This document shows, one piece after another, positions 614 through 17,594 of a DNA stretch of 64,000 bases (its first letter is position 1; every line of letters starts with the position of its first letter). A program made the translations under genes and the position numbers. Below the pieces are notes generated by a model that did not search any database, had not been told where the DNA came from, and worked only from the letters and a program-made list of their open reading frames with translations. Where the stretch lies: the sequence record NC_048196.1, one strand, 5' to 3'. The DNA is from Escherichia phage vB_EcoM_Schickermooser.

Positions 614-958
614 ATGCAAGAGAGTAAAAATGTTCCGTTAAGTAGTTTACGTCTAATGAAGTTTTACAAAGCTTGGCTTGCTGGTGAGGTAGAAGGTCAC
701 ACAACGAGTGGTTTGTGCATATGTTTGATTAAGTATGTAGAGGGAACATACCCTGATGAACTGTTACCTCGTCTACAACAAGAGATGAAATCCCAGTTTA
801 TTGGTGCAGGACTAGATTACAATTTCCCGTTTAATGAAGGCGGTTATGAGGAATACACCTTCGAACATAAAAAACATATTTGCCATAAAAACAAACATCG
901 TATACAATGGGTGCTAGATAGAATTCAAGATTATGAAGGAGAGAAAAATGCCAAATAA
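614..958 (+). CDS. early paralog family A, member 1 (hypothetical)
   Basis: SD-like GAGGAG upstream; shares FYKAW / TSGLC.CL / GLDYN.PFN / RIQWV motifs with five other ORFs. Confidence 0.6.
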   Translation: MQESKNVPLSSLRLMKFYKAWLAGEVEGHTTSGLCICLIKYVEGTYPDELLPRLQQEMKSQFIGAGLDYNFPFNEGGYEEYTFEHKKHICHKNKHRIQWVLDRIQDYEGEKNAK

Positions 959-1316
959 TATTCCGTTGAGTAGTGCAACATTGCTTCGCTTCTATAAAGC
1001 ATGGATTGCCAACTATCCTGCAATGAATCGCACAACGAGTGGCTTATGTGGTTGTCTGGTAGACTATGTAGATGATTTTGTTGGTGAGACAACTAGAGAA
1101 GAAGATAGAAGATGGCGTGATCATTTGTTAGACCGTTTGAAATATGAAATGAGGAAACAATTTACATGTGCAGGGCTGGACTACAATCTTCCGTTCAATG
1201 CAGATTGCATGGATTACCTTTCAGAGTGTATAAACTTGGCGTGTCATACCAACGAGTTACGTATTCAGTGGGTGAAAGATCGCATTGAAGATGCAAATAA
1301 TGCTTGCATTGAATAA
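948..1316 (+). CDS. early paralog family A, member 2 (hypothetical)
   Basis: start moved to ATG 948 (AAGGAG upstream); same motif set; overlaps previous stop. Confidence 0.6.
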   Translation: MPNNIPLSSATLLRFYKAWIANYPAMNRTTSGLCGCLVDYVDDFVGETTREEDRRWRDHLLDRLKYEMRKQFTCAGLDYNLPFNADCMDYLSECINLACHTNELRIQWVKDRIEDANNACIE

Positions 1317-1365
1317 AGATGTTTGTATAATGGATGACATAACAGATAGCCAATGAGGAGATGAA

Positions 1366-1575
1366 ATGAAGAATTTGAAAACTGTCACAATGTTCTTGAC
1401 TAATCCTACACGTGTGCAAGCACTGGCTAAAGCCAGCCGTGTAGCTGTAGAATTCCAAAACTTTAAGCCGTCCGTTGTGACAGGCAGTGAAACGTGTGTT
1501 ATCGATTTCATTAACGAATACTTCCGAGGGAATCCGGTTGGTCGTTACTTTATTAAGGGTCTGAAGGATGCATAA
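1366..1575 (+). CDS. hypothetical protein
   Basis: ORF with GAGGAG upstream, co-oriented array. Confidence 0.45.
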   Translation: MKNLKTVTMFLTNPTRVQALAKASRVAVEFQNFKPSVVTGSETCVIDFINEYFRGNPVGRYFIKGLKDA

Positions 1576-1576
1576 C

Positions 1577-1798
1577 ATGAAACGCATGAAAATTCGTATT
1601 GAGAATGATGGTGGTTATAAAGGACTTACCCGTGCAAAATTCCCACTTGTGTTGGAAGCTACGGTGGAATACAGTGGGCTTGCTCATGTGCGATTCTCGA
1701 AGATGATGGAAGTGCAGGAATGGTTTTGGGACGAGATAGATGCACGAGAAGGGGAAGATTATGTTTTCTTTCCTCACGAATATGAAATTGTCTATTAA
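1577..1798 (+). CDS. hypothetical protein
   Basis: ATG 1577 after GAAGGA; co-oriented array. Confidence 0.45.
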   Translation: MKRMKIRIENDGGYKGLTRAKFPLVLEATVEYSGLAHVRFSKMMEVQEWFWDEIDAREGEDYVFFPHEYEIVY

Positions 1799-1810
1799 GG
1801 GTTGTGTGCA

Positions 1811-2050
1811 ATGATCACACCACAACAGAATGAAGCAGCAATGGATCTTCTCGATAGTTTGTATTTCGATAATTGGTACTCTGAATGTGAATGGATGAAT
1901 ATGCAAACTCTGAAAGAGAAGACAGAAGCGTTGATTACAGTAGATCAATTTCTTGCAGAGACGGAAAGAATGAATTATGATATGGCATCTCGCGCACGAC
2001 GCGTTTCCATTTTCAATAAAATGTTAGCATTATGGGGAGGTAGAAAATGA
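1811..2050 (+). CDS. hypothetical protein
   Basis: ORF; ATG 1811 preferred over TTG 1802. Confidence 0.4.
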   Translation: MITPQQNEAAMDLLDSLYFDNWYSECEWMNMQTLKEKTEALITVDQFLAETERMNYDMASRARRVSIFNKMLALWGGRK

Positions 2051-2508
2051 AACAACTATCTATACTGGAAGCGCATGTGCAATGTGTTGTAGATTATGTC
2101 AAAGAACACTCAAGTTTGTTGAATGTAACCTGTGCAGTGCAAAACGATGTAGGTATTGTCTGTGTGCAACATATCTTATCTGAAACTCGTTATGAAGTAT
2201 TTCGTGCCACGTTGTTTGGATGTGATCGAGTGCATGTAAACTTCCTGGACTCCAATTATCGTTATGCTTTAGAAAATATTGATGATTATCTTCCTTGCTC
2301 TCCGACAGGATATGTAATGGTAACAGCAAACGAAGTAACACCAAGCAACAGTGAGCGGGAAGCTTTGTTACGGAAGAAAATACGCCAACTGCAAGTGTTG
2401 AATGAACTGAAAGAAGAGATTGAAAAAGAGCTAAAAGAAGATTTTGGTATGCTTCCAAAAGACGCTTTGAAATGGTATGATGAACTAGGAGGAGAGAGCA
2501 ATGTTTAA
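2047..2508 (+). CDS. hypothetical protein
   Basis: GGGGAGG SD upstream; start overlaps previous stop. Confidence 0.55.
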   Translation: MKQLSILEAHVQCVVDYVKEHSSLLNVTCAVQNDVGIVCVQHILSETRYEVFRATLFGCDRVHVNFLDSNYRYALENIDDYLPCSPTGYVMVTANEVTPSNSEREALLRKKIRQLQVLNELKEEIEKELKEDFGMLPKDALKWYDELGGESNV

Positions 2509-2959
2509 AGAAGGTCATGTCTACCGTTTCCAGGATGAGGATTATATGCGACTATATTCTACCTTTGATAACAGTATTGCGGCTATCATTGGAGAGAATT
2601 TTTTCGAGGTGTTGAGCACTGATGCAAATGGTAATATCTTGTCAATGGTTGTAATAGGTATGAGAGATGGTATTATCACTGCTGGTGATGGGGATCGTTA
2701 CATAATCAATTCTGCTCATATAGATTATTTTGTTGACGGCGGTGTTCGTGGTGGTCGTGGAAAACCCCAAGAAGAACCTGTTGATACAACAAAAGAAGAG
2801 TGGTATGTTGTAATGACTGGTGACACCTGTATTTCTGGATCTCAAAATTATGAAGAAGCTTTGAAAGAAGCAGCGGAGCATAAAATGGCTAATCCTACAG
2901 AAGAGGTTGAAGTTTATAAACGTTTGGTTGTTGCTACCATCGGCGTATCTTTTGTTTAA
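2501..2959 (+). CDS. MFK-family protein 1 (hypothetical)
   Basis: N-terminus MFKEGHVYRF and C-terminal EVYKRLVVATIG shared with the next two ORFs. Confidence 0.55.
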   Translation: MFKEGHVYRFQDEDYMRLYSTFDNSIAAIIGENFFEVLSTDANGNILSMVVIGMRDGIITAGDGDRYIINSAHIDYFVDGGVRGGRGKPQEEPVDTTKEEWYVVMTGDTCISGSQNYEEALKEAAEHKMANPTEEVEVYKRLVVATIGVSFV

Positions 2960-2971
2960 AAGGAGAATGTT

Positions 2972-3757
2972 ATGTTTAAAGTAGGTTTTGTTTACAACTT
3001 CAAATCGGAAGATACCAAAAACAATTTTGGTAAAGCTAGTATTCGTAATGCCTTTTTTGTAGGTTGCATCCAAGATAGTAAATTTAAAGTTTTGGATGTT
3101 GATTTTCTTGGTTCTGTATCCAAGGTGAAGGTATTAGACACAAATAAAATCATCGAAGGTGGTTCTGGGCTTTTCCCTGAAGGTTATAAGCTTGTAAGTT
3201 GTATGGATTATACTCGTTTTGAAGAACATACTCCTGAAGATTATGAAGATTCTCCTACAGGAGGCTGTGTCTTTGTAGAAGGTGGTGTCTATAAGTTTGC
3301 AAGTGAACAAGATCGTAAGCTTTTCGCCAATTATATTGACGGAGGACAAACGACAAACAATGTAAACCGAAAAATTTCCGATCTTATTGGTGATGATCCT
3401 TTCGTGATCACAAAGATGGTTGGACAAGATGTAACAGCAATCCGTAGGCTTGTATGTAATACAAATCATGTAGCAGGTGAAGGTTGGTTCAAGGAAGCTT
3501 GTGCGCTGCTAATCAAAAGCGATAACCCTTATTTTAAAAATATTAAAGATGTTGTTGAGCCTAAACAAGAGGAATCCGCAGCGAATTTTAAACACTATGC
3601 TATTGTTAAAGGTATGAATGTCCAACTGGTGTCACATTCTTACGAAGAGATCGCCACAGAAGCAAAAAAGATGAAAGAAGAATACCCAATTTCTACTGTT
3701 GAGATCTATGAGCGTATTGGTGTTGTTAGTATTGAGCCTACTGCGGTAATAAAATAA
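2972..3757 (+). CDS. MFK-family protein 2 (hypothetical)
   Basis: N-terminus MFKVGFVYNF; AAGGAG SD upstream. Confidence 0.6.
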   Translation: MFKVGFVYNFKSEDTKNNFGKASIRNAFFVGCIQDSKFKVLDVDFLGSVSKVKVLDTNKIIEGGSGLFPEGYKLVSCMDYTRFEEHTPEDYEDSPTGGCVFVEGGVYKFASEQDRKLFANYIDGGQTTNNVNRKISDLIGDDPFVITKMVGQDVTAIRRLVCNTNHVAGEGWFKEACALLIKSDNPYFKNIKDVVEPKQEESAANFKHYAIVKGMNVQLVSHSYEEIATEAKKMKEEYPISTVEIYERIGVVSIEPTAVIK

Positions 3758-3766
3758 GGAGCTATT

Positions 3767-4204
3767 ATGTTCAAAGCTAATGCTGTTTACTGTTTCAAAA
3801 GCAAAGCTGCATGTGAAGCTTTCTCTACAATCTCTGATGAAAATTTCAAAATGGCAGCTTTGATTGAAGGGTCTTGTTTCCGCGTCGAAGATGTTAGTGA
3901 ATCAGGATCTGTTTGCTCGTTGACTTTATTGGACAGCGGAGATATTATTGAAGCTGGACAGTATCCGTTCAGAAGTTGGGAGATATTGTTAGCTCGCGGA
4001 GAGCGTAACTTTTTTATGTGCGTGTCTGCGGGGGAAGTTGTGAAAGAAACTAAGGATGTTTCTGTTTACAATTCTGAATTTATAAGTTATAGTGAGTATC
4101 AACATCTGGAAGGCATTGTTGGTCACTTGTTATCTCTGATTGACATTGAATGTGATTTGCCTGAATCATTGAAAGAAGAGTTGAAAGCATTAGATCTGCT
4201 GTAA
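3767..4204 (+). CDS. MFK-family protein 3 (hypothetical)
   Basis: N-terminus MFKANAVYCF; AAGGAG SD upstream. Confidence 0.55.
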   Translation: MFKANAVYCFKSKAACEAFSTISDENFKMAALIEGSCFRVEDVSESGSVCSLTLLDSGDIIEAGQYPFRSWEILLARGERNFFMCVSAGEVVKETKDVSVYNSEFISYSEYQHLEGIVGHLLSLIDIECDLPESLKEELKALDLL

Positions 4205-4231
4205 TGTTCCGCACAACGAAAGGAGAATAAA

Positions 4232-4531
4232 ATGAATCTGACCGAACAGTTACGCCGTATTGCAAAAGAAGCTTCCTTCAACTTCCCTGTTGAAGAAGTG
4301 ATCGAGACATGTTTTGCTGAAGCACGAGCGGGAAACTCTTCAAGAAATTTCACGCCATCTGATTTTGGTCTGGATAATTCCCCTACCCACCCAGGGGAAA
4401 TCTACAATCAGGTGAAATGGATGGATGAAGCAGTAGCAATTCTTCGTGAGCGTGGGCTTGTTGTTTATAAAGAAATGGATCTGAACGGGGCATACGAGTG
4501 GATCACTATTGATTGGTCGGAGGTGAAATAA
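4232..4531 (+). CDS. hypothetical protein
   Basis: AAGGAG SD upstream. Confidence 0.55.
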   Translation: MNLTEQLRRIAKEASFNFPVEEVIETCFAEARAGNSSRNFTPSDFGLDNSPTHPGEIYNQVKWMDEAVAILRERGLVVYKEMDLNGAYEWITIDWSEVK

Positions 4532-4740
4532 TGGTTACTATTACATTGACAGTTACACAAGAGCAAGCAGAAGAATTACGTGATGCAGTGGCATACATGG
4601 GACGCTCTTATTATATGCCTTATAAATCACAAGATGTTTTTGCTACAGCCATTGAGAAAGCTTTAAACAAATATCGAGAAACTCATGCCGTTCCTAAAGT
4701 AGCAGCAGAAGAGTTTGGCACTTGGCACGAAGTTAACTAA
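4531..4740 (+). CDS. hypothetical protein
   Basis: ATG 4531 overlaps upstream stop (TAATG); GGAGGTGA SD. Confidence 0.5.
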   Translation: MVTITLTVTQEQAEELRDAVAYMGRSYYMPYKSQDVFATAIEKALNKYRETHAVPKVAAEEFGTWHEVN

Positions 4741-4750
4741 GGAGGTATCG

Positions 4751-4984
4751 ATGAAAGGTAACAAGATGAAAGTTAATCAGGTACCGAGTGCATACACTTT
4801 GTGGCTTGCGCGAGCGTTACACCAGACGATCAAAAATCCTAAGAAGCCAATGAAGAGTGGGAAGAAGTTTATGTCTAAGGGCAAAACAACCTTTGGCTTC
4901 ACTCGTATGTCTGTTAAGATGAAAAGACTGGGGTATAAGCCAAACTACGCTCGTTACCCTTCCGAATACAACTGGTTTGACTAA
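4751..4984 (+). CDS. hypothetical basic protein
   Basis: ATG 4751 after AAGGAGG; lysine-rich product. Confidence 0.5.
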   Translation: MKGNKMKVNQVPSAYTLWLARALHQTIKNPKKPMKSGKKFMSKGKTTFGFTRMSVKMKRLGYKPNYARYPSEYNWFD

Positions 4985-4999
4985 AGAGGAGAACAAAAC

Positions 5000-5302
5000 A
5001 TGAAAACATTTATTCGCGTAAAACATGATCCGAACAGCAGTTACCCATACGCGTATGTTGAACGTCATGAAGGAGACTATTACACCATAAAACGTAAAGT
5101 CCCAACTGATACAGGGTTTAACTTCGATGTTATCGCACTGGATGATCAAGGTGTTGATAATCTGGTGAACGCATTACTCGCATTGAAGGAAGCACGATAT
5201 GAAAATCCGACTAATCGAAAAGGGGATACCATCTTCGAAACCCGTAAAGGGGAGATCACAGAGATTCCAGGAGAAAGATTATGGCTACTTTTCAACAACT
5301 GA
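5000..5302 (+). CDS. hypothetical protein
   Basis: AGAGGAG SD upstream. Confidence 0.55.
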   Translation: MKTFIRVKHDPNSSYPYAYVERHEGDYYTIKRKVPTDTGFNFDVIALDDQGVDNLVNALLALKEARYENPTNRKGDTIFETRKGEITEIPGERLWLLFNN

Positions 5303-5458
5303 AAGATGTTTCACGTTTAGTAAGAAAAATCCGAGAAGCAGACGCTGCTGTGCGAAATGCACTAACACCAGCAGAGCGTGAAGATCTTGAAGAGGAGGTG
5401 AAAACAGCCGAGAATGCTTTTGCTGCGTATCTTTCAACACTGCACACAGGAGGTTAAA
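5282..5458 (+). CDS. hypothetical small protein (58 aa)
   Basis: ATG 5282 after GGAGAAAG; stop overlaps next ATG (TAAATG). Confidence 0.4.
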
Positions 5459-5772
5459 TGTCAGAGGAACTTAAAGAATTTTATCAGGCATATCATAACT
5501 GGCTGTTAGCTGGTGCTCCAGATAATAATCCTTTCTGGCATGATAAAGGGTTATGTAGCTGCCTATATCTTTGGTCGGGTGGTTATGATGACCTAAATTA
5601 TGAAATGCAAATGCAATTCCGCGAAGCAGGTTTGTCTGAAGAATACCCGTTTGATGATGGGGATTGGTTTAAATATGATTTTGCACAAAGAAACGGGCTG
5701 CTACATTTGAATGCTGCCCGTATAAAATGGGTAAAAGATCATGCTACACAGGAGGATGTGCAATGCCTATAG
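5458..5772 (+). CDS. early paralog family A, member 3 (hypothetical)
   Basis: motifs FYQAYHNWL / GLCSCL / RIKWVKDH. Confidence 0.6.
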   Translation: MSEELKEFYQAYHNWLLAGAPDNNPFWHDKGLCSCLYLWSGGYDDLNYEMQMQFREAGLSEEYPFDDGDWFKYDFAQRNGLLHLNAARIKWVKDHATQEDVQCL

Positions 5773-5963
5773 TGTTTGTTTTCTTGGCGATTGCTATGGT
5801 AGTTCTTTTCGCTGCATGGCTTTGGGATTTTGACCCAGGAGCCGCGCAGCAAAGAGCTACGGACTTGAAAGAACAATGTATTGTGCTCAAACATGAACGA
5901 AATGCGGAGAAATTTCTTGACCTGGAGTGTGATCGCCTTGTAAGATACAAGCAAGACAAATAA
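5763..5963 (+). CDS. small membrane protein
   Basis: ATG 5763 after CAGGAGG; hydrophobic stretch IVFVFLAIAMVVLFAAWLW. Confidence 0.5.
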   Translation: MPIVFVFLAIAMVVLFAAWLWDFDPGAAQQRATDLKEQCIVLKHERNAEKFLDLECDRLVRYKQDK

Positions 5964-5977
5964 CCTTGAGGTGCAAA

Positions 5978-6166
5978 ATGGTAATTGAGATTAAACTTGA
6001 GTATGCTGGCGCTGTTGCTCTGATCGCACAAATGCTTGGAGCAAAGATTGAAGAAGTGTATATCAACGCTTGGAGCGTAGAGATTGATGTTCCTATGGAC
6101 AACATTGCTAATCGCTTGCTGGTGGCAGAGTGTGAACGCACCAACATAATCTACAAAGGAGCATAA
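5978..6166 (+). CDS. hypothetical protein
   Basis: ATG 5978 after GAGGTG. Confidence 0.45.
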   Translation: MVIEIKLEYAGAVALIAQMLGAKIEEVYINAWSVEIDVPMDNIANRLLVAECERTNIIYKGA

Positions 6167-6167
6167 T

Positions 6168-6389
6168 ATGAAAATTAGAGTTTGTGATGTATTGGGTTAT
6201 GTTGGTTTTGAGAATGTTCAGATTCCTTTTGTTGTTGAAGCACATCTTGTTAGTGAGGATATGACAACATTCTTTGTTACGATAGAAGAAATGTCCAAAG
6301 TCGAGGGATGGGAGTGGTTTGAAGAAGATGTTTGGGAAGGTTGTGATTACGTATTCTTCTCTGACGAAGTGAAGGTTCTTGCGGAGTAG
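6168..6389 (+). CDS. hypothetical protein
   Basis: AAGGAG SD upstream. Confidence 0.5.
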   Translation: MKIRVCDVLGYVGFENVQIPFVVEAHLVSEDMTTFFVTIEEMSKVEGWEWFEEDVWEGCDYVFFSDEVKVLAE

Positions 6390-6391
6390 GC

Positions 6392-6598
6392 ATGTCTTGT
6401 TTTACGAAAGCAGTGTCCATATGTAAGAAACAGTATGAAAGTGATTACGGAATATTTAATATTCCTGCGGATCATACAGAGTATTGTTCATGCGGTGGCA
6501 GAATGAAGAAAACAGTGATTTATGCGGATAATGGAGATGAACTTGTTCCGGTTATTGTTTGCAAAGCTTGTCATTCTGTTAAAACATTAAAAGCGTAA
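6392..6598 (+). CDS. small zinc-ribbon-like protein
   Basis: Cys pairs CSCGG ... CKACH. Confidence 0.45.
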   Translation: MSCFTKAVSICKKQYESDYGIFNIPADHTEYCSCGGRMKKTVIYADNGDELVPVIVCKACHSVKTLKA

Positions 6599-6694
6599 GG
6601 AGTCGGGACACCCGACGATTGGAGCTAAAAATTTTGCGTACAACCCTTTCTGCCCAACAGGGGGCGCATCGGGTAAACAAAGAGGAGAGTTTAT

Positions 6695-7093
6695 ATGAAA
6701 AAGATCATCGTAGGTTTCTTGTTACTCATTGCATCACTTGGAACAGCAAATGCGTCTCAAGTTTATGAGTGTGTGTCAGATGTGGTTGTTAAAAATCTGA
6801 AAGGTGAAGTGATTTCTGGTCCTAAGAAAATGGCTTCTGTTGTCATTAATAAAGATAACTCCTTTATCCTTAAAAATTCAGGTGGTGCTTTGATGAGTGG
6901 CATTCTGCAATACACAGGAGAAAAAAGTAAAGATGGTAGTGCTATGTACGGTTCACAACAATTTATTGGCACTACTGAAGTGGTTATGCTACGCACAGAA
7001 TATCGGGACACTTTAGCTTGGTTTGCATTTCTTAAAAATGATAAAACAATAACAAATGTTCTTACTCTAGAAGCTGATTGTACTCAACACTAA
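6695..7093 (+). CDS. secreted/periplasmic protein (signal peptide)
   Basis: N-terminus MKKIIVGFLLLIASLGTANA with AxA-type cleavage site; AGAGGAG SD. Confidence 0.6.
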   Translation: MKKIIVGFLLLIASLGTANASQVYECVSDVVVKNLKGEVISGPKKMASVVINKDNSFILKNSGGALMSGILQYTGEKSKDGSAMYGSQQFIGTTEVVMLRTEYRDTLAWFAFLKNDKTITNVLTLEADCTQH

Positions 7094-7180
7094 GAGAGTT
7101 CACCGTAAGATGTTCGAAATCATATTTTTCACTGTGTGTATATTTCTTTTAGGTAGCTTAGTTTATGAATAGGAGTTTAA

Positions 7181-7639
7181 ATGTCTAAAGTTAAACATTA
7201 TGGTGTAAATTGGAGTGATGCTTGGCCTCTATGTAAAGATGACCCTACAGAAGGGACATTTGTAAGATACGAGGATTATAAAGAATTATTAGATGCTGTG
7301 ATCGCATTGTTAGACGATATTCGTTCACGTTATCCAGGACAAGACTTCACTTGTCCTCACATTCAACTTCTTGCTTGTCTAGTAGAAGGTTTGCCAAAGG
7401 AGGTAGAAGAAGGGTTTAAGCGTGTGCAATATCAAGGTGAAACTCTAGATGTTCCTGAATTTGTTAATTATATTACAACAGATTCAAGTGGTGATCGTTA
7501 TGGTTACAGTCATAAGCCAGAGATTCCAGATTTCGTTCATGCTTGGCGTATTCCTTATGAAGTAATCAATGTTGCAGATTGTTGGTATTTAGGAGAAGGA
7601 GACAGCCGTAATTGGCGTGACTCTTTGATTCAGGTTTAA
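7181..7639 (+). CDS. hypothetical protein
   Basis: AGGAG SD upstream. Confidence 0.55.
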   Translation: MSKVKHYGVNWSDAWPLCKDDPTEGTFVRYEDYKELLDAVIALLDDIRSRYPGQDFTCPHIQLLACLVEGLPKEVEEGFKRVQYQGETLDVPEFVNYITTDSSGDRYGYSHKPEIPDFVHAWRIPYEVINVADCWYLGEGDSRNWRDSLIQV

Positions 7640-7643
7640 CAAT

Positions 7644-7907
7644 ATGAAAGAAACATTGCCAGCAGCATATCGTTTGAATGATGAACGTATTTGGGAGTGG
7701 ACCGACGTTTCTTGCTTTTACCCCGAAATAGTTCAGTATTGGCGAGCAAAAGGGTGTGTTGTAGTTATCAATCCTTGTGGACCAGTAGATGAAGATTGCT
7801 TGTATCTCGATGGGAAGTGGCACAGTTATTGTCGCTGGCCTTTTGAGTGGATGTGTAAAGAAGATCTCCCAGAGGGCTGGGAGTATCCAAAAGCAAATAG
7901 GAGATAA
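7644..7907 (+). CDS. hypothetical protein
   Basis: ORF in co-oriented array. Confidence 0.45.
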   Translation: MKETLPAAYRLNDERIWEWTDVSCFYPEIVQYWRAKGCVVVINPCGPVDEDCLYLDGKWHSYCRWPFEWMCKEDLPEGWEYPKANRR

Positions 7908-7908
7908 T

Positions 7909-8271
7909 ATGTCTAAAGATTTTGTTGAAGTATTTGTCAAAGATGAAGAAACTGGTTTAGGCACGGGTTTCATTTGTGAAGAAACTTTTAAACGTGAACA
8001 AGAAAAAGCTATCCTTATGCGAAACTATGATCATGCATTAGAACAATGGAAAAATGCAGAACAAAAATGCAAAAACCTTTATGCAGAAAATAGAAAACTA
8101 CAAGATCAAATGGAGTTGTTAGCTATCAGTTTACGATCTCTCATTTTGGCTGTAGAAGACGGTTTTAAAAATCCAGATGGTTTTCCTGTGAGCGATATTG
8201 AACATGATTTGTATCTTGCTCGTGGTGCTTACTTTTATGTTAAACAGAAGTCTGTAGAAGGAGAGAAGTGA
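7909..8271 (+). CDS. hypothetical protein
   Basis: ATG 7909 after TAGGAGA; upstream part of the listed ORF overlaps the previous gene. Confidence 0.5.
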   Translation: MSKDFVEVFVKDEETGLGTGFICEETFKREQEKAILMRNYDHALEQWKNAEQKCKNLYAENRKLQDQMELLAISLRSLILAVEDGFKNPDGFPVSDIEHDLYLARGAYFYVKQKSVEGEK

Positions 8272-8468
8272 TGGAAGAAAAACTGGAACGTATTATCGAG
8301 TTAGCCATGTCTATTGGCTACGACGATTGTTTTCTCCAAACTATTGGAGAAACACAGAACGATTACGACTCTTGGGTGAAAGAGTTGGAAGAACTCAAAA
8401 CTTCCTTGATTGCTGACTTTGCTGAAGCAGAGGATAAAGCGGATCGTTACAACTATCTGTGTCGATAA
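8268..8468 (+). CDS. hypothetical protein
   Basis: start overlaps previous stop (ATGA-type). Confidence 0.45.
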   Translation: MMEEKLERIIELAMSIGYDDCFLQTIGETQNDYDSWVKELEELKTSLIADFAEAEDKADRYNYLCR

Positions 8469-8471
8469 ACC

Positions 8472-8499
8472 TTGACATTTCTTTTATGTATGGTATACA
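8472..8499 (+). promoter_or_regulatory. sigma70-like promoter candidate
   Basis: TTGACA 8472-8477, 16-nt spacer, TATACA. Confidence 0.4.
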
Positions 8500-8529
8500 T
8501 ACATTATCAACACAGATAAGGAGAGAAAA

Positions 8530-8874
8530 ATGATTAAACTTTTATGTGCAGAGTCTTCTGTCGAGTTCCTTAAAGAGGGTAAGCAGTATCTAGCTTCCCA
8601 AGTTATAGATAATCCAGGTTTGTTTTATATTACAGACGAAGAAGGGGATACCCTGTGTATCTCTTTGATTATGGATTGTGGTCGGTTTCATGTAATTGAG
8701 GATGACACTATTCGTCTCTTTGAGGTTTCCTACACAAAAGACAATGGTCCTGTCCGTAAATATCAAATTCCCGCAAAATCCGCCTTTAACGCATGTGTAC
8801 GATTAGGTCAAATCTACGGGGACGATAAAGATTGTCGTGAAGATGTATTTATCAACGTGATCGAGGTAAAATAA
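8530..8874 (+). CDS. hypothetical protein
   Basis: AAGGAGAG SD upstream. Confidence 0.55.
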   Translation: MIKLLCAESSVEFLKEGKQYLASQVIDNPGLFYITDEEGDTLCISLIMDCGRFHVIEDDTIRLFEVSYTKDNGPVRKYQIPAKSAFNACVRLGQIYGDDKDCREDVFINVIEVK

Positions 8875-9200
8875 TGAAAACAAGTAAAGATTTGATGGAG
8901 TTTTATAAAATTTATCTAGCATGGATTGATGTTGGTGCTCCTGATGGTAAACCTTTTCGGCGGGATTGTGGTTTGTGTGCCAACTTGTTCGATTATGTGC
9001 ACAGAGGTAATTACAACCCCATTATAACAACCTTGTCAGATGAAATGCACGCACAGTTTTACCATAAAGGGTTGAATCAAGGACTCCCTTTCAATGAGAA
9101 CTACGATGCATATGTCTTAGAGTCAGATGCAGATGCCTGTCACCTGAACGTGGACAGAATTAATTGGGTAAGAGATCGTATTGCAGAGGAGGATGAATAA
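8874..9200 (+). CDS. early paralog family A, member 4 (hypothetical)
   Basis: motifs FYKIYLAWI / GLCANL / RINWVRDRI. Confidence 0.6.
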   Translation: MKTSKDLMEFYKIYLAWIDVGAPDGKPFRRDCGLCANLFDYVHRGNYNPIITTLSDEMHAQFYHKGLNQGLPFNENYDAYVLESDADACHLNVDRINWVRDRIAEEDE

Positions 9201-9417
9201 TGTCGGATTATAACTGGTATGAACTTGAAGCTGTTTGTCAGTTTTATGACTCAATAGTTCTGCGTGATCCAATCTGTCAAGAATTGAGTCGCCGTGCAAT
9301 GCAGAGGAGGATGAATAATGTCGGATTATAACTGGTATGAACTTGAAGCTGTTTGTCAGTTTTATGACTCAATAGTTCTGCGTGATCCAATCTGTCAAGA
9401 ATTGAGTCGCCGTGCAA
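9182..9417 (+). repeat. perfect tandem duplication, 2 x 118 bp
   Basis: 9182-9299 is identical base-for-base to 9300-9417. Confidence 0.9.
9200..9331 (+). pseudogene. truncated duplicate of the N-terminus of the 9318 gene (43 codons)
   Basis: first repeat copy carries the same ATG and first 33 codons (MSDYNWYELEAVCQFYDSIVLRDPICQELSRRA), then shifts frame and stops. Confidence 0.4.
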
Positions 9418-9545
9418 GTGCATTGGCAATCCGTGTTAAAATAAACGGTTGGAACGCAGATTTGGAAAAAGAGTTGGAATTTCTCTTAGAAAACACGCGG
9501 GTCTTCCGCAAAGTGTTCCCTGAATGGTTTGAGATGGAAGAATGA
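9318..9545 (+). CDS. hypothetical protein
   Basis: ORF starting in the second repeat copy; GAGGAGG upstream. Confidence 0.5.
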   Translation: MSDYNWYELEAVCQFYDSIVLRDPICQELSRRASALAIRVKINGWNADLEKELEFLLENTRVFRKVFPEWFEMEE

Positions 9546-9763
9546 TCATGTGGATTGTGCGTCTTAAGTATGATGGCCCTAATCCTTGGGTGAGAACAGT
9601 TTGCGGATGTGATACTAAAGAGTCAGCAGATAAAGCTGGAAGAATGATAAGTGCCTTTTATAATAGTAAACCTCTTTGTTTAGAAATGTCTGGTGTGGTT
9701 TGTATGAGCATGTTCGAATACTACTCTTATGAGATCAAAGAACACCAAGGGGAATGGAAATAA
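9542..9763 (+). CDS. hypothetical protein
   Basis: ATGA overlap with previous gene. Confidence 0.45.
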   Translation: MIMWIVRLKYDGPNPWVRTVCGCDTKESADKAGRMISAFYNSKPLCLEMSGVVCMSMFEYYSYEIKEHQGEWK

Positions 9764-9777
9764 ATAGTTGACAGAAG

Positions 9778-9806
9778 GATCTGTCTTTGTCATAATCATC
9801 TCATCG
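9778..9806 (+). promoter_or_regulatory. sigma70-like promoter candidate (TTGACA-N17-CATAAT)
   Basis: TTGACA 9778-9783, CATAAT 9801-9806. Confidence 0.5.
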
Positions 9807-9825
9807 AAACAAAGAGGAGAAAATC

Positions 9826-10314
9826 ATGAAAAAATTTATTTGCACCCGTTCCACTAACAGTGATATCCTTGTAGGTAAGGTTATCAAAGGAGAACTCTTC
9901 CATGCAAACGGTAAGAAATATATTCTGCTGAAAGATTCTTTCAACGGGGAATATCCGCGCTGTACTTTCTTCAATTACAACACTCCGTTTGCTTTAGAAG
10001 GAGATGCTTGGGACTGGGCTGAACTTCATCCTTTCTGTGAAGATGGACAGACAGAAGAGCAGGAAGAATCTACGGGAAGTTTACGTGATAAACTGCGTAA
10101 TAAAGCACTGCAAGCAAATTCCCATTTTACTGAAATGGTAGACGCCGTTCTATTAGAGATTGAAGATTGTGCGGAACAAGGGAAGTTTGAAAAATACTTT
10201 GAACCTTCCAGTTTTGGTTTGTGCAATAACCCTTCTTCTTATGAACAGATAAGTGAACAGAAAAGAGGGGCAAATGTTGTAGCTACAATGCTACGTGCAA
10301 AGGTTTGGATGTAA
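9826..10314 (+). CDS. hypothetical protein
   Basis: AGAGGAG SD upstream. Confidence 0.6.
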   Translation: MKKFICTRSTNSDILVGKVIKGELFHANGKKYILLKDSFNGEYPRCTFFNYNTPFALEGDAWDWAELHPFCEDGQTEEQEESTGSLRDKLRNKALQANSHFTEMVDAVLLEIEDCAEQGKFEKYFEPSSFGLCNNPSSYEQISEQKRGANVVATMLRAKVWM

Positions 10315-10389
10315 CATTGGCAACCGCAGAGCACAGTATTTTTGGGATTATCAAACACATCATTATTAGTTGGAACTAAAGGAGAGAAT

Positions 10390-10689
10390 ATGCAAGTTGA
10401 AGACCTGATCCACATTCTGAATAAAGCTAAAGAGAAGGGTGCTATCAAAGACTGGAAACGTGAAACAAGTGAAGATTTATCTCATTGTTGCCGAGAGTTT
10501 TACATCGAAGGTATTGCTGACGATCATTATACTATCGAATGGTATATCAACTTAATGACCCTTAAGCACGGTTCATTTGAGATTTGGTTTGATGCTATTG
10601 ATGTAAATGGTTTTCATCCTGGATATAAGATTGCTATGCAGTTATCTTATCGCAGAGAAGTTGTAGCTCATTTGGGTTTACATAACTAA
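10390..10689 (+). CDS. hypothetical protein
   Basis: ATG 10390 after AAAGGAGAG. Confidence 0.5.
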   Translation: MQVEDLIHILNKAKEKGAIKDWKRETSEDLSHCCREFYIEGIADDHYTIEWYINLMTLKHGSFEIWFDAIDVNGFHPGYKIAMQLSYRREVVAHLGLHN

Positions 10690-10699
10690 GGAGAAAAGA

Positions 10700-11023
10700 A
10701 TGCAAGCAGTTGTTAACGAAGCTATTATGAACTTATCTTTCTTGTTAGCTGGTTTAGGAGGTGTTCTCATAGGTTTGGCTCTTATCTGGTGTATTCGTCG
10801 ATTAATCGGGTACCGACAAAAAGGTGTTTCATGTTTTGTATCTTACAATTTTACAACTGCTTACAGCAATGAGGTTGGATCTGGCAATGCTCAAGCATTT
10901 TTACCAACATATCCTCCTACGGTGGAAGATATTAGAAACTTGGAAGTAGAACTTATGGGACTAGGTGATAACTATACATCTCTAGTTATTCAAAATATTT
11001 TTCGACTAAAACAGGGGGCGTGA
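10700..11023 (+). CDS. membrane protein
   Basis: AAGGAG SD; hydrophobic segment LSFLLAGLGGVLIGLALIWCI. Confidence 0.55.
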   Translation: MQAVVNEAIMNLSFLLAGLGGVLIGLALIWCIRRLIGYRQKGVSCFVSYNFTTAYSNEVGSGNAQAFLPTYPPTVEDIRNLEVELMGLGDNYTSLVIQNIFRLKQGA

Positions 11024-11215
11024 ATGAAGGTACATTACCCTCATCCATTTGATCCTAAAAAAAAAGCCGTAATTCTTCGTCAGTGGCAACGGGTTTGTCG
11101 TACTAAATGTCCAATCAATAGCCCACACAATGTAGACAAGGACTATCTGGGACATTTGTTGAATACACTACATAGAAAAACAAGCGTAAACAACATGTCG
11201 AGGAATACTGCTTAA
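11024..11215 (+). CDS. hypothetical protein
   Basis: ORF abutting previous stop. Confidence 0.4.
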   Translation: MKVHYPHPFDPKKKAVILRQWQRVCRTKCPINSPHNVDKDYLGHLLNTLHRKTSVNNMSRNTA

Positions 11216-11244
11216 GAGTAGAATGGCTGTAAATAATAAATACC

Positions 11245-11273
11245 TTGACAAGTGTTTATTCGTTTTGTAAAGT
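11245..11273 (+). promoter_or_regulatory. sigma70-like promoter candidate (TTGACA-N17-TAAAGT)
   Basis: TTGACA 11245-11250, TAAAGT 11268-11273. Confidence 0.45.
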
Positions 11274-11302
11274 GAGAATACAGCAATGGTTTAGGAGCGG
11301 TT

Positions 11303-11955
11303 ATGAAAAAGTTTGTTGTTTACAGTCGTCTTTCTAACAGAAAAAAGGTGAGGCACACATGGTATGGAGAGCCAAGAGAATGATATCCGTTACTTCTTAG
11401 GTGTGATGCGGAAGTTATTGGTCAATTTTCTGAATACTATTCGGGTAAGGCGATTGGAAGCAACGTAAGGAACTGGTTAAAGGTTGAAATGTGTAAAGCT
11501 ACCGGAGCATTATTGGTAAAGTTGACCGCTTGGGTCGTAACAACGCCTCCGTAGCAACTCTTCTAGAAATGATTGATGTTAAGATAGCCATCATGCCAGA
11601 CGCAGATAAAATGGTTATACAGCTTCTGTCTGTTCTGGCTGAACAAGAAGTTAGAGGTATTGCTGATCGTATTAAAAAGGGTCTTGCTGTAGCAAAAAGC
11701 AAAGGTGTTTTATTAGGCAGTGCTAATCCTAAAACTGCCGCTGCACGTAGAAAAGGAAAAATGGAATACAACTCTGTTAAAGCAGACGCTTTTGCAGAGA
11801 CATTCCGTGAACGCTTGGAGATCCTTAGAGATTTAAATACACCTTACAAAACTATTGCTGAAAAATTCAATAGTAAGAAAATAGCAACAGCACGTGGTGG
11901 TAAATGGGATGCTAAAACTGTTTCTCGTTTGTGTGCCAGACTGAACATTAAATAG
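11303..11955 (+). pseudogene. decayed serine recombinase (resolvase/invertase-like)
   Basis: N-terminus MKKFVVYSRLS (Y.R.S catalytic-like) hits in-frame TGA at 11381-11383; downstream SGKA and, in another frame, KVDRLGRN; one missing base near 11524 would restore VKLDRLGR. Confidence 0.45.
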
Positions 11956-11963
11956 GAGAGGAT

Positions 11964-12371
11964 ATGAAACAAGAAAATGAATCTATAGATCACTTAATCA
12001 TGCTGTCAGCCCTTTTTGCCGGATGGGACGTATTTTTTGAAAATTTGTTCAATTCTGCTACAGATGGTTCCGATTTTATGCGCCAATTTAAACGACGAAC
12101 TGTTGAGGACTATGCTTTCTATTCAGGTCGGATTGAAAAAGGTTACGAAGATACAAATACAACACTCACCATTAAAGTTTTAGATGTGATGTTTAGTGTT
12201 ATAGATGCTATCGACGAAAGTCTTCCGATCCTAGATAATTGTAATACGAAAGCCTATGTTTACAAAATAGCCCGTGCTTATGTGTCTGCAAACAGTTGTC
12301 TTCTTTCCACCCAAATTGCGGTGAACAATCTTGCCAACTTGTCGATGAAGGAAACTTTTTATGACAATTGA
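11964..12371 (+). CDS. hypothetical protein
   Basis: AGGAGAGG SD upstream. Confidence 0.55.
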   Translation: MKQENESIDHLIMLSALFAGWDVFFENLFNSATDGSDFMRQFKRRTVEDYAFYSGRIEKGYEDTNTTLTIKVLDVMFSVIDAIDESLPILDNCNTKAYVYKIARAYVSANSCLLSTQIAVNNLANLSMKETFYDN

Positions 12372-12723
12372 TTTGAAGTGTAAGAGGATTCTTTTAGATT
12401 TCTATAATAATTGGTTAGAACACCTCCGTCTCTTTCCACGAGAAAGTGGTTACGCTGATGTTGGCTTATGCCGAGGTCTACGTATGTATATAAGTGATGA
12501 ATTTCGAGCCGATCATTCTTTATATTCTGTTTATGGTATGCAATTAGCCAGTTTTGAAAATGCTGGTTTAGATACAACTTTCCCGTTTAACACAGCAAAA
12601 TCTTTTGAGCAAGAGTGTAAGGAAAAACGTTGCATGTTTAATGAAAAACGTGTACAGTGGGTTAAGGAGCGAGTTAAACAACTGGAACAAGAGTTGGATT
12701 TCTTCTATGATGAGGCAGAATAA
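12361..12723 (+). CDS. early paralog family A, member 5 (hypothetical)
   Basis: motifs FYNNWL / GLCRGL / RVQWVKERV. Confidence 0.6.
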   Translation: MTIDLKCKRILLDFYNNWLEHLRLFPRESGYADVGLCRGLRMYISDEFRADHSLYSVYGMQLASFENAGLDTTFPFNTAKSFEQECKEKRCMFNEKRVQWVKERVKQLEQELDFFYDEAE

Positions 12724-12995
12724 TGGATAGACAAACCTTAAAAACAATGGCAGATGCCACTAATTCCCCGTACTTTGAAAAAGTAAGTAAATTGGTAGCT
12801 CAAGCCGCAGAGGAAGGATATTATAACATAAACATCCACAACCCAAGTCTTATACTAGAAATGCCAGGTGATAAGAAGATACAAGAGAGTATCTGTGAAG
12901 GTATTGTTAGTTACTGGCGCGAGCGTGGGTGTGGTGCAAACATGGCTTTAGACAGTGCAAACATTGTAAGATATATAAATATTTCTTGGGGGTGA
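12723..12995 (+). CDS. hypothetical protein
   Basis: TAATG overlap with previous gene. Confidence 0.5.
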   Translation: MDRQTLKTMADATNSPYFEKVSKLVAQAAEEGYYNINIHNPSLILEMPGDKKIQESICEGIVSYWRERGCGANMALDSANIVRYINISWG

Positions 12996-12999
12996 TTTT

Positions 13000-13611
13000 A
13001 TGATTCAATGCACTCATATCCAAATTACTTGGAGAGATGAACTTTACCATTTAGGACAATTTACTGTAGGGGAAACATACCCTGTCATTAAACATAATCC
13101 TAACATCGCAAACTTTGACAGGATGGTTCTTGTTGAGGACGATCTAGGTCAAACTTATTCTTTAGATCTAAAATATCCGTTTTCTTACGGCTACGATTGG
13201 ATCGTTACTTTTGAAGACGTGGAGGAAAATAAAACAATGAACGAAAAAAATTCTTGGTATTATCGTTGTGAACTGCCGCCAGTAGGTGAAAAGGTTATCT
13301 TTGTTCCTGATTTGGAAAGATATTCTTGGGACAGTTCTTATTCTGTTCCTAAAGAAGGCACCGAAGTTGAAGTTATTGCACATCGCACAACTTCGCATGG
13401 TAACGATGTAGCAGTTGTTTTCTGGGATGATGAAGGCGCTGCTTGTGCAGGGGGCTTTGTTGCAGGTAATTTTGAACCACTGCCAGATCCTTTGAAGGAG
13501 GCAATTTTAGGCGTAGCTTCTTTTGGACTCTCTTACACATCTGCACAAGAGATCGTAGAAGGTATTTTAAACGGTACCGTTCCAAACGAAATTTTTAAAC
13601 AGATTAAATAA
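13000..13611 (+). CDS. hypothetical protein
   Basis: 203-aa ORF. Confidence 0.55.
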   Translation: MIQCTHIQITWRDELYHLGQFTVGETYPVIKHNPNIANFDRMVLVEDDLGQTYSLDLKYPFSYGYDWIVTFEDVEENKTMNEKNSWYYRCELPPVGEKVIFVPDLERYSWDSSYSVPKEGTEVEVIAHRTTSHGNDVAVVFWDDEGAACAGGFVAGNFEPLPDPLKEAILGVASFGLSYTSAQEIVEGILNGTVPNEIFKQIK

Positions 13612-13618
13612 TAGTTGC

Positions 13619-13645
13619 ACCCCGTTCTGCGGGGTGTTATTGTAT
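13619..13645 (+). terminator. intrinsic terminator candidate
   Basis: 7-bp GC-rich stem CACCCCG/CGGGGTG followed by T-rich tract. Confidence 0.45.
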
Positions 13646-13661
13646 ACGTAAAGGAGCGCTA

Positions 13662-14000
13662 ATGTATTACACTGAAGACTACATATTATATAACTTTTTT
13701 AAAGGCTGGTTGGAATGGGCGGAAAAAGCTCCTGTTGGAGATTGTGTTTTTCCTTGGGACTCTCGTCAAGGTTTGTGTCGTTGTTTGGAAGATTGGCTTA
13801 TAACCACAAGCTACAACTCAGAAACTAAGAAATCTACATCAAACAGATTAAAAATGTTATTTGAAGAAGATGGTTTAGATCCAATTTATCCTTTCGGTGC
13901 TGAAAGCTTCCACAATGGTCTTTTTCTTGGTACTCAACATTATGACAAAGATCGCGTAGATTGGGTAAAAGAAAAGGTAGCACAGTATGAATGGGGTTAA
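13662..14000 (+). CDS. early paralog family A, member 6 (hypothetical)
   Basis: motifs FFKGWLEW / GLCRCL / RVDWVKEKV. Confidence 0.6.
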   Translation: MYYTEDYILYNFFKGWLEWAEKAPVGDCVFPWDSRQGLCRCLEDWLITTSYNSETKKSTSNRLKMLFEEDGLDPIYPFGAESFHNGLFLGTQHYDKDRVDWVKEKVAQYEWG

Positions 14001-14326
14001 GAATTATCACCATTGGTTAGAAAGTTATATTAAGAAATGTGAACTTGGTGTTCCAGGTTATACTTACGACACGGACGAGATTCTTGATGAAATGGAAGTT
14101 TGGTTTAAAGAGCCTCGTGAACTATTGGCAAATATTCTAATGGCTTAGGATGGTACGGCACAAAGGGGAGGTAGAAATGAGTAAGAAATTGTTTAATATT
14201 CGTGAGAACCGTGATGATCGTTCTCTGTAGTCAATGAGTTTAACGTTTCGGTTGGGACTTTTATTACTAAACGTCAAGCAGAACAAGTCAGAGATACTTT
14301 AAACAAGTAAATTTTTAAGGGGACTT

Positions 14327-14746
14327 ATGTTAGGTAAGATCAAAGCTTTTTTCAAACGTATTGTTGAAGGAAGTCCAACAGAAGGTGCATTAGGAAGATC
14401 TCTAACAGGAGAACCACTTGCCATAATTTCTATCAGTCGGCATGGTGGATATTCCATTCGACAAACACCTTTAGGTATAGAAGGTAGTATGCTTTCTTGG
14501 ACAATATCTCAAGTTGGTGATAACAGACTTGCAGCTATAGCGTTACTTCGTGGGGAGTATGACTATTGTTTATCAGCACCTTGTAAAAAGCACCTCATAG
14601 AGCACATTAGAGACAGAGTAGAAAGAGAAGGCGGATACTTCTTCGAAACTAAGAGAAACGAACAAGGAACTCTTGACTTCACTAAGGTTTACTGGGACAA
14701 TCATACTCGTCAAACTGTTGAACAACTTCTGGAGGAAAGATGTTAA
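14327..14746 (+). CDS. hypothetical protein
   Basis: AAGGGGA SD upstream. Confidence 0.55.
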   Translation: MLGKIKAFFKRIVEGSPTEGALGRSLTGEPLAIISISRHGGYSIRQTPLGIEGSMLSWTISQVGDNRLAAIALLRGEYDYCLSAPCKKHLIEHIRDRVEREGGYFFETKRNEQGTLDFTKVYWDNHTRQTVEQLLEERC

Positions 14747-14949
14747 AAGCTTTTGCTGTATACTCTACTGTAGGATTCTTTTATTGGATTATAGTTGTTG
14801 TTGGATGTTGGTTGGGTTCTTCTGTTGTGATGGGAGAATGGTTAACATACAATGTATTTGAATGGGATGTAGTTTGTAGATCATTACTTGTTATATGGAC
14901 TGCTATTGTTTGTTGGATAACTGTTAGTCTAACATTAGATCTATATTGA
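14740..14949 (+). CDS. small membrane protein
   Basis: GGAGGAAAG SD; two hydrophobic segments. Confidence 0.5.
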   Translation: MLKAFAVYSTVGFFYWIIVVVGCWLGSSVVMGEWLTYNVFEWDVVCRSLLVIWTAIVCWITVSLTLDLY

Positions 14950-15117
14950 TTAATAGATGGTAGATAGATGATCATAGTTTATCTACCTTCACTTACGTTT
15001 CATACCTCACTATCGTGAGTAACATGAAACATTATTATATAGAAATCTACTACTCGCTATCGCTCGTAAACATATGTTTAGGGTACCATATTTTTTTGAA
15101 AAAGTCAATGCTGACTC

Positions 15118-15207
15118 ACCTATCAATTATCCGTTTAAGATAAGTCTTACCTATCAATCTAACTCTTAACTAGTATTGCACCTATAGTAAGACTATTCCT
15201 ATAGTTA
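15118..15207 (+). promoter_or_regulatory. direct-repeat cluster in a 360-bp non-coding region
   Basis: ACCTATCAAT at 15118 and 15149; CCTATAGT at 15181 and 15198. Confidence 0.35.
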
Positions 15208-15242
15208 TTAACCCTCTTCTTCTGTAGAATGTAATTAGATCC

Positions 15243-15272
15243 TTGACAAACTCACAAAGCTTGTGTTACATT
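15243..15272 (+). promoter_or_regulatory. sigma70-like promoter candidate
   Basis: TTGACA 15243-15248, N17/18, TTACAT/TACATT. Confidence 0.35.
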
Positions 15273-15309
15273 GTGTCTCACAGGTGAATAATACCGAACA
15301 GGAGGAAGA

Positions 15310-15525
15310 ATGAGTTCCAATTTTCTATACAAAGCAAAAGATTCACGAGATGGAGAGAACCATTGGTGGTTGATCACAGGAGATGGTGTTATCATCCTAC
15401 CGTGGGACGGAGAGACAAAAGTTCAAATACTAGAGAAAGTAAAAGGTGTTAGTTTTAATGTTAGTCATGACATAACAACTTTCAAAGCTTTTGCTATGAA
15501 TCCTAGTCTTGTTGCTGAATGGTAA
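15310..15525 (+). CDS. hypothetical protein
   Basis: CAGGAGGAAG SD upstream. Confidence 0.5.
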   Translation: MSSNFLYKAKDSRDGENHWWLITGDGVIILPWDGETKVQILEKVKGVSFNVSHDITTFKAFAMNPSLVAEW

Positions 15526-15538
15526 TCCAGGAGAAAAT

Positions 15539-15757
15539 ATGACTAAAATGTATGCAGCCGTTGATAAGCTGGATGGGTCTGATTCTGTTTTTATTTTGAA
15601 TAAAATGGGTGTCTTAGTTTATGCCCGAACTTCTCAAAACATAGAACACCAAGTGGAAGCAGCACAAATTTTAGAGCAAATAACCCCTCCATACCTATAC
15701 TCAAATGTTGAGCGTTTTAACGATGCACTTGGTTTGACGTTAATAGCGGAATGGTAG
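15539..15757 (+). CDS. hypothetical protein
   Basis: ATG 15539 after CAGGAGAAAAT. Confidence 0.5.
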   Translation: MTKMYAAVDKLDGSDSVFILNKMGVLVYARTSQNIEHQVEAAQILEQITPPYLYSNVERFNDALGLTLIAEW

Positions 15758-15759
15758 TA

Positions 15760-15957
15760 ATGGCGAAAATGTTGGAAATTGATAATGTCGTAACAATCAC
15801 TACGTCCATACCTTGTCCTCCTATACCTTGCCCCTATTGTGGTGGTGCAGGATATGTTATGGCGGACGTAGGTCAAATTTACGAGTGTAACCCGTGCAAA
15901 ACCACAGGTTATATCCAAATAGAATCAGAGGAGAAACACTATGAGCCAAAACGCTAA
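15760..15957 (+). CDS. small Cys-rich protein
   Basis: CPYCGG ... CNPC motifs. Confidence 0.4.
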   Translation: MAKMLEIDNVVTITTSIPCPPIPCPYCGGAGYVMADVGQIYECNPCKTTGYIQIESEEKHYEPKR

Positions 15958-16390
15958 AGAAAAAGAAGTAATCACGGTAATCCGTCAGATGGAAGGTGCC
16001 GAAAACAATGCTTTTGTTACTAAGATTCTTCTTAATATTTTTGAAGATGTTATTTTAAACAACCCTGGTCATAAAGATTATCAGTATGATGTTATGATGG
16101 GTGCTTTGCTTGAGATTAACAAAAACACTTTTGCTGAATATGAGCAACACATGCTTTTACCAGAGGAAGATCAGGATTATTTGTTATCTGGTGCTTTAAG
16201 TGCACAAGAAAATTTCTACCACGTTCTTAATATGGCTTATGCAGATGAACTTGCTGTTTCCCTTGAAGAGCGTATTCAAATGGTTCGTGATGTGATGAAT
16301 GAACAAATCCAAGAAGTTGAAGACTTGGTAGCAGAACCTTTAGCAGAAATTCGTGCAGCTATTGAAAAACAAAAAGGAACTCAATCATGA
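15941..16390 (+). CDS. hypothetical protein
   Basis: GAGGAGAAA SD upstream. Confidence 0.55.
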   Translation: MSQNAKEKEVITVIRQMEGAENNAFVTKILLNIFEDVILNNPGHKDYQYDVMMGALLEINKNTFAEYEQHMLLPEEDQDYLLSGALSAQENFYHVLNMAYADELAVSLEERIQMVRDVMNEQIQEVEDLVAEPLAEIRAAIEKQKGTQS

Positions 16391-16554
16391 TGCAAGTAGG
16401 TGATGTGGTTTGCCTTAAAGGTGCAAACAAACAAATGACAGTAATAGAAAGTTATGGTGAATCTTGTAAAGTAACTTGGTTCGATGAAAACGGGGAATTG
16501 CAACACGCCATATTCGATCAAAAAGCTTTGAGGAAGGTTGAAGAAAAAGAATGA
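16387..16554 (+). CDS. hypothetical small protein (55 aa)
   Basis: ORF bridging two genes with overlapping start/stop. Confidence 0.4.
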   Translation: MMQVGDVVCLKGANKQMTVIESYGESCKVTWFDENGELQHAIFDQKALRKVEEKE

Positions 16555-16814
16555 GCCATCCGTCAATATTTTTCTGTTTTGTAGATCTTGAAAACGAGTC
16601 TTTAATCGTTGATAGTGAGGGTTACTTCACTTATTGGGAATCCGAGCACGAAACTATAAGTGTAGTGAAAGAAATTATGCAAACCAATCCAAGCCTACCA
16701 GCGCATAAGTACGGTATTGCAAAAGTGTTTGTTACTAAAACAGAGTACACAAAAGAGCGAAGCACTTTGTACCATAATATTGAAGTGATTCACTATTTCA
16801 AAGATGTTATTTAG
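16551..16814 (+). CDS. hypothetical protein
   Basis: ATGA overlap with previous ORF. Confidence 0.5.
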   Translation: MSHPSIFFCFVDLENESLIVDSEGYFTYWESEHETISVVKEIMQTNPSLPAHKYGIAKVFVTKTEYTKERSTLYHNIEVIHYFKDVI

Positions 16815-16822
16815 GAGGTTAT

Positions 16823-17431
16823 ATGGAAGAGAAGATTTGGGATGGTAAAGATCCTTTAGAAGTTGGACATGTAGCGCGTGTCAAAAAATCTACTACAGGT
16901 CCTGGTTTTTCTGGTTTGTATCATATACCAGAAGAAGGTCAGCACGTTACAATTTTGGCTCGTGACAAACAAAACGGAGCAACGCCTGTGTGGATTGTTC
17001 GTTGGTATGACAAAGATCTTAACATTTGCTTGTCACCTATTATGGCTCATTTGCTGGAAGCCCCTTGCTCTGAAGAAGCTCTGATTTTTGTTTCGGCTTT
17101 TCAGAAAGCCACAGGTTTAACATTAGATGCAAAAGATGTGCAAAAAGCATTTGACATTATTCAGGAAGACAACGATACTACATCTAACGACGAACTGGTT
17201 GAAGTTACAATCTTATCTTCAGCAGATATCCGAGAGATTGATAAATGTGATTTTCCAATCACATTTAAAATGTCGCAGAAAGACATGCAGTCATCTGGAA
17301 GTTGTTTTGGTATACCTCGTTGGTTTTTTGATTCTATCAAAAATTCTACTACAGAGGGATCAGACTATGATCAAGATGACATGCTTTGGTTCTTAAAAAA
17401 CCGAGAGATTGTTCTCTCACCACTTAAATAA
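16823..17431 (+). CDS. hypothetical protein
   Basis: TTAGGAGG SD upstream; 202 aa. Confidence 0.6.
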   Translation: MEEKIWDGKDPLEVGHVARVKKSTTGPGFSGLYHIPEEGQHVTILARDKQNGATPVWIVRWYDKDLNICLSPIMAHLLEAPCSEEALIFVSAFQKATGLTLDAKDVQKAFDIIQEDNDTTSNDELVEVTILSSADIREIDKCDFPITFKMSQKDMQSSGSCFGIPRWFFDSIKNSTTEGSDYDQDDMLWFLKNREIVLSPLK

Positions 17432-17440
17432 GGAGAAATA

Positions 17441-17542: not shown

Positions 17543-17594
17543 TCTATCAAAGCTGCATCTTCAATAGGTGCAGCCTTTTAAAAGGAGATATGGC

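Follow-up and report, generated by a model that had tools for sequence, protein, structure and literature searches.

A private 118-bp tandem duplication in the early region of a Phapecoctavirus genome is probably an unmerged assembly overlap

The window, the whole 64-kb stretch of DNA that was analysed, carries a perfect tandem duplication of 118 bp in its early genes. The duplication is probably an unmerged 118-bp overlap left at an assembly join and not a product of phage biology. An earlier note on this DNA had offered two explanations, that the duplication is very recent or that it is an artefact of assembly. These remain the only serious options, and the evidence now leans to the artefact. 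The balance tilts this way because the duplication is private to the window, forms a clean 118-bp insertion, lacks microhomology at its junction and is adjoined by error-like deletions. The features of the locus are as follows.

9182-9299, + strand: copy 1 of the 118-bp unit, comprising the final 6 codons of the 108-aa gene with its stop, the Shine-Dalgarno sequence GAGGAGGA, the ATG and codons 1-33 of the downstream gene.
9300-9417, + strand: copy 2 of the 118-bp unit, same content as copy 1; the intact 75-aa gene takes its Shine-Dalgarno sequence GAGGAGGA and its start from here.
9295-9304, no strand: the junction, where GTGCAA runs directly into TGCAGAGG between bases 9299 and 9300.
8874-9200, + strand: 108-aa gene, intact, with its stop inside copy 1; PHROG 2510, function unknown.
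9200-9331, + strand: 43-codon chimeric ORF, made of the 33 N-terminal residues of the 75-aa protein and, across the junction, 10 further residues (MQRRMNNVGL; ORF table).
9318-9545, + strand: 75-aa gene, intact, starting in copy 2; PHROG 25020, function unknown.

The two copies had been described as identical at every base, and direct string comparison of 9182-9299 with 9300-9417 bears this out (118/118 bases). They lie head to tail with a spacing of 118 and no spacer, and the identity extends 0 bases beyond the outer borders of the pair on either side. Tandem Repeats Finder (TRF) agrees, reporting a single array at 9182-9422 with a period of 118, 2.0 copies and 99% match. Its 5-base overhang arises because a TGCA motif recurs just past copy 2, one base out of register. 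A perfect tandem match of 118 bp cannot have arisen by chance (approximately 4^-118). At the join, GCCGTGCAA is followed by TGCAGAGG with 0 bp of microhomology; the same junction can also be written as GCCGTGCAA followed by TGCAGAGGAGG. TGCA motifs lie near both ends of the unit and are out of register by one base.

A repeat search of the 64-kb window found the 118-bp pair to be its sole sizeable repeat, and no inverted repeats were found. The only other direct repeat of at least 30 nt is one 32-nt pair, 88% identical, at 18730-18761 and 36997-37028. The pair ends in AAAGGGGCCGAAGCCCCT, a GC-rich hairpin. It is probably a common intrinsic-terminator module closing two transcription units.

The unit was said to span the stop of the gene at 8874 and the Shine-Dalgarno sequence, ATG and first 33 codons of the next gene, and the ORF table places all of these within it. 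Both predicted reading frames were also recovered, the 43-codon truncated duplicate encoded from copy 1 as an ORF at 9200-9331 and the full 75-aa protein beginning in copy 2 as a gene at 9318-9545. The stop of the 108-aa gene overlaps the ATG of the 43-codon ORF (TAATG). The 108-aa and 75-aa genes are both preserved despite the duplication, and the 43-codon ORF is added to them. Neither flanking protein has an above-threshold match in Pfam. No promoter-like, terminator-like or composition signal was found at the repeat, and the nearest strong promoter-like site (9768-9796) lies outside it.

The 108-aa gene is itself a member of a multi-copy family of proteins of approximately 105-120 aa (PHROG 2510 and related, function unknown). 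Searches by tblastn with the 108-aa, 106-aa and 121-aa members of phage Ro121lw link six family sites in the window, at 641-931, 969-1292, 5461-5757, 8874-9197, 12361-12720 and 13686-13985, with 27-40% identity. Some relatives have an additional family copy after a 73-aa gene.

The window belongs to Phapecoctavirus, the phAPEC8-like E. coli myoviruses of approximately 150 kb in the Stephanstirmvirinae, and is 95-99% identical to such genomes. The best phage record is LR597654.1 (phAPEC8_ev052), with 98.6% identity over 8500-10300 and 98.1% over 1-20000. None of the records is identical to the window, complete E. coli genomes gave no match, and an exact 162-aa product was also absent from the gene records. 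The earlier note had named related isolates as a comparison that would bear on the duplication. Every relative examined has one copy, and the unit occurs once in more than 60 of them, leaving the duplication private to the window. The three records covering the full 1801-bp query do so with 1683 bp, 118 bp fewer than the query. A 91-bp query crossing the junction aligned as two separate pieces in every listed record. A shorter junction query of 50 bp (25+25 bp), which seeds only where the junction exists, had no match in 50,697 phage records. Likewise, the junction 24-mer was absent from IMG/VR, from GTDB (185,579 species-representative genomes) and from JGI metagenomes.

The gene-position collection gave the same picture. 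It lists the exact 75-aa protein in 310 blocks, while the exact 43-aa product corresponds to no gene on record there. Two look-ups of the 75-aa protein returned 20 loci drawn from Logan, ENA and NCBI assemblies, and in 20/20 the 75-aa gene comes immediately after the 108-aa gene. Each of the 21 fetched loci gave two HSPs against the window, overlapping on the one copy in the locus. When one copy was deleted from the window, the alignment to 11 relatives became gap-free, and the de-duplicated window had zero differences from ABJJUU010000002.1 over 8800-9900. On these comparisons the duplication is a private, clean 118-bp insertion in an otherwise wild-type locus. In 417 kb of related loci TRF found no tandem repeats of period greater than 30, so the region appears to have no tendency to such duplications. 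A mosaic recombination breakpoint at the duplication was considered and rejected, as no SNP boundary falls at this point and the closest relative shows no differences over 8800-9900.

The window also holds a cluster of 10 tRNA genes on the + strand at 55947-57871 (Met, Arg, Ser, Asn, Thr, Gly, Gln, Pro, Ile, Met); related Phapecoctavirus genomes have such a cluster too. The Ro121lw annotation has an additional pseudo-tRNA-Tyr in this cluster.

Downstream of the repeat the sequence departs from its relatives in a second way, across the following feature.

10299-14319, no strand: private small-deletion patch with 23 gap openings of 1-7 bp each, 39 bases in total.

All 23 gaps are bases missing from the window relative to its relatives. 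The first deletion lies approximately 880 bp downstream of copy 2, and the densest part of the patch is 11148-11517. The stretch from the repeat to the first deletion (9418-10298) is error-free. Over window positions 11100-11600, all 61 of the phage records that cover the interval span 524 bp vs 501 bp in the window, and ten further loci all show the same 23 gaps or more. Some of the losses come from short runs (AAAA to AAA, GGG to GG, TT to T); others are non-repeat blocks such as ACTCT.., AGC and CATC... In a multiple alignment the window agrees with its closest relative at SNP positions while lacking bases.

When compared with the nearest relative (Logan SRR25429215), the window shows approximately 6 substitutions and 23 deletions in the patch, vs 10 substitutions and no indel in the next 5 kb. 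Relative to Ro121lw (MH160766.1), the window has no indels between 14.4 and 50 kb. A few occur at 51-58 kb; these run in both directions, lie in homopolymers or simple repeats and for the most part are not shared by the two references. Within the patch the deletions frameshift at least four conserved genes, encoding a 184-aa protein (at 10299), a DUF7202 protein (11148), a 223-aa serine recombinase/resolvase (approximately 11303-11952) and a 44-aa protein (14216). All four are intact in every relative examined. An excess of 23 private deletions over approximately 6 substitutions, with conserved genes broken, shows that the local consensus is unreliable. Judged by this pattern, the patch looks like poor consensus, either of a low-depth, long-read-like kind or with uncovered positions dropped, and not like evolution.

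The start of the window bears on how the genome may have been handled after assembly. In alignments, window base 1 falls on the first base of the records MH160766.1, OR062524.1 and OR062526.1, and two more records start within 75-254 bp of it. Independent Logan contigs, on the other hand, run straight through this point. Because the start base is common to three records while the Logan contigs pass through it, the comparison suggests that, after assembly, the source genome was cut and rotated so as to begin at a conventional position. The window start is a conventional, or possibly a physical, genome start used by several depositors. A direct terminal repeat was not located at window positions 1-650. 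In Ro121lw (MH160766.1) no gene is annotated in the first approximately 610 bp.

These observations can be accommodated by a simple sequence of events. Two sequence ends overlapping by 118 bp would have been concatenated and not merged. The ends could have been both ends of a contig of a circular or permuted genome, or those of two stitched contigs. Later re-orientation to the conventional start would then have placed the overlap, still untrimmed, inside the sequence as a perfect tandem repeat. We infer that the join at 9299/9300 is the point where the assembler's ends met. Support for the assembly origin comes from the perfect identity and strict tandem arrangement of the copies, their private occurrence as a clean insertion, the 0-bp microhomology, the nearby error patch, the signs of re-orientation and documented precedent. 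The lack of microhomology favours an artefact since an arbitrary contig end should have none, and a slippage product without it would be unusual. Other observations weaken the assembly explanation. The error-free sequence at 9418-10298 keeps the bad patch from touching the join, and both flanking genes are intact, as a viable real duplication would also show.

The length of the unit also counts against the simplest form of an assembly artefact and limits what kind of join can be envisaged. SPAdes uses odd k values (55, 77, 99 and 127), and 118 is not a default k-mer of any common assembler. The unit does not equal an assembler's final k-mer (127, 99, 77 or 55 for SPAdes), being even and no default k. 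A SPAdes k-mer overlap was rejected as the literal cause, as 118 is neither an allowed nor a default k. Because 118 matches no default k, the assembly explanation must assume an overlap-type, long-read or manual join.

The main competing explanation is a genuine tandem duplication that arose very recently in the phage stock, is too young to have diverged and is neutral or nearly so. We regard this as unlikely, though far from negligible. The duplication is, after all, present in the sequence itself, its 118-bp length matches no standard assembler k-mer, and the phage would be viable with the flanking genes and the Shine-Dalgarno sequence and ATG of the 75-aa gene kept. If long reads were used, as the deletion-biased patch hints, a real two-copy repeat could have been resolved correctly. 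The mechanism would have to be an illegitimate, homology-independent join across two early genes, for example one mediated by topoisomerase or gyrase or resembling end joining. The 0-bp microhomology excludes the commonest mechanism, slippage or short-homology recombination. Slippage at microhomology was rejected specifically because the extension is 0 bp; use of the TGCA motifs is less parsimonious, as it needs a 119-bp period and then the loss of 1 bp. A real duplication should also be unstable, and transient unless selected. Perfect 118-bp tandem repeats are quickly lost through recA-independent deletion between short tandem repeats. Furthermore, the duplication is absent from every relative and every independent assembly, related loci have no tendency to such duplications, and the neighbouring sequence is ridden with errors. 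Were it genuine, the extra translation start would be predicted to drive a 43-aa N-terminal fragment. The fuller version, in which a real, homology-independent join created a new translated 43-aa ORF (the N-terminus of the 75-aa early protein with a novel 10-residue tail) and left both neighbours intact, is similarly doubtful.

A functional or structural repeat was also considered. The unit might be a short direct terminal repeat or a packaging end that came to lie internally, or it might act in regulation, as an iteron-like element or a duplicated translation-initiation region. Such a repeat is highly improbable. Short terminal repeats do exist in the group, as BME3, a Justusliebigvirus of the same subfamily, is reported to have a 342-bp direct terminal repeat identified by PhageTerm (PMC12210895). 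The unit, however, is within coding sequence, with the conventional genome start 9.2 kb away, and a terminal repeat is expected at the two genome ends and not in tandem. The locus is single copy in the more than 60 relatives, and independently assembled contigs pass through it unbroken. It also offers no promoter, terminator or composition signal, and in no relative is the repeat conserved as a repeat. Going by the single-copy state in all relatives, the terminal-repeat, packaging and regulatory possibilities are effectively refuted.

The practical consequences differ between the two serious options. If the duplication arose in assembly, 118 bp of the record and its 43-aa ORF are spurious. The record would then also lack the approximately 39 bases missing from the patch, a loss that falsely pseudogenises the serine recombinase and at least three other genes. 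As artefacts, such errors would spread to resources for annotation, pangenomes and protein clusters. If real, the duplication would be a minor instance of recent micro-duplication among the early genes of a phage, without known phenotype. Were the 43-aa ORF also translated, the locus would offer a snapshot of gene birth or dosage change via micro-duplication in a lytic phage.

Spontaneous tandem duplications that arise by illegitimate recombination are classically known from T4 rII and lambda, and fall into short-homology-dependent and -independent classes. Like them, the window has a short head-to-tail duplicate with zero divergence and preserved flanking genes. Unlike classical slippage or short-homology events, which have a few bases of microhomology at the join, the window has none. 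Assembly artefacts provide a second group of precedents. Artificial end overlaps of 127 bp produced by SPAdes have been documented (PMC5923482, PMC9331655). The window resembles these overlaps in having an exact duplicate of approximately 100 bp with zero divergence and no counterpart in relatives, at a position arbitrary relative to genes, and in a genome that was probably re-oriented after assembly so as to begin at a conventional point. It differs in that the unit is 118 bp, not 127, 99, 77 or 55, and in that the copies are internal and tandem. In the congeneric phage AV125 (OR352955.1, 107929-108055) a 127-bp misc_feature is labelled 'Dupl_ends_SPAdes', the depositor's mark of a SPAdes contig-end overlap. 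There a single copy was kept and labelled, at another position and not in tandem, whereas the window has two tandem copies. In przondovirus assemblies, repeats of approximately 79 bp proved to be artefacts by Sanger sequencing, and short indels introduced by assembly break coding regions (PMC10438801). Those assemblies come from another phage group and have their repeats near the terminal repeats, whereas here the repeat lies in an early-gene operon. As in the przondovirus assemblies, the window pairs a repeat, at 9182-9417, with a patch of small deletions, at 10299-14319 (PMC10438801).
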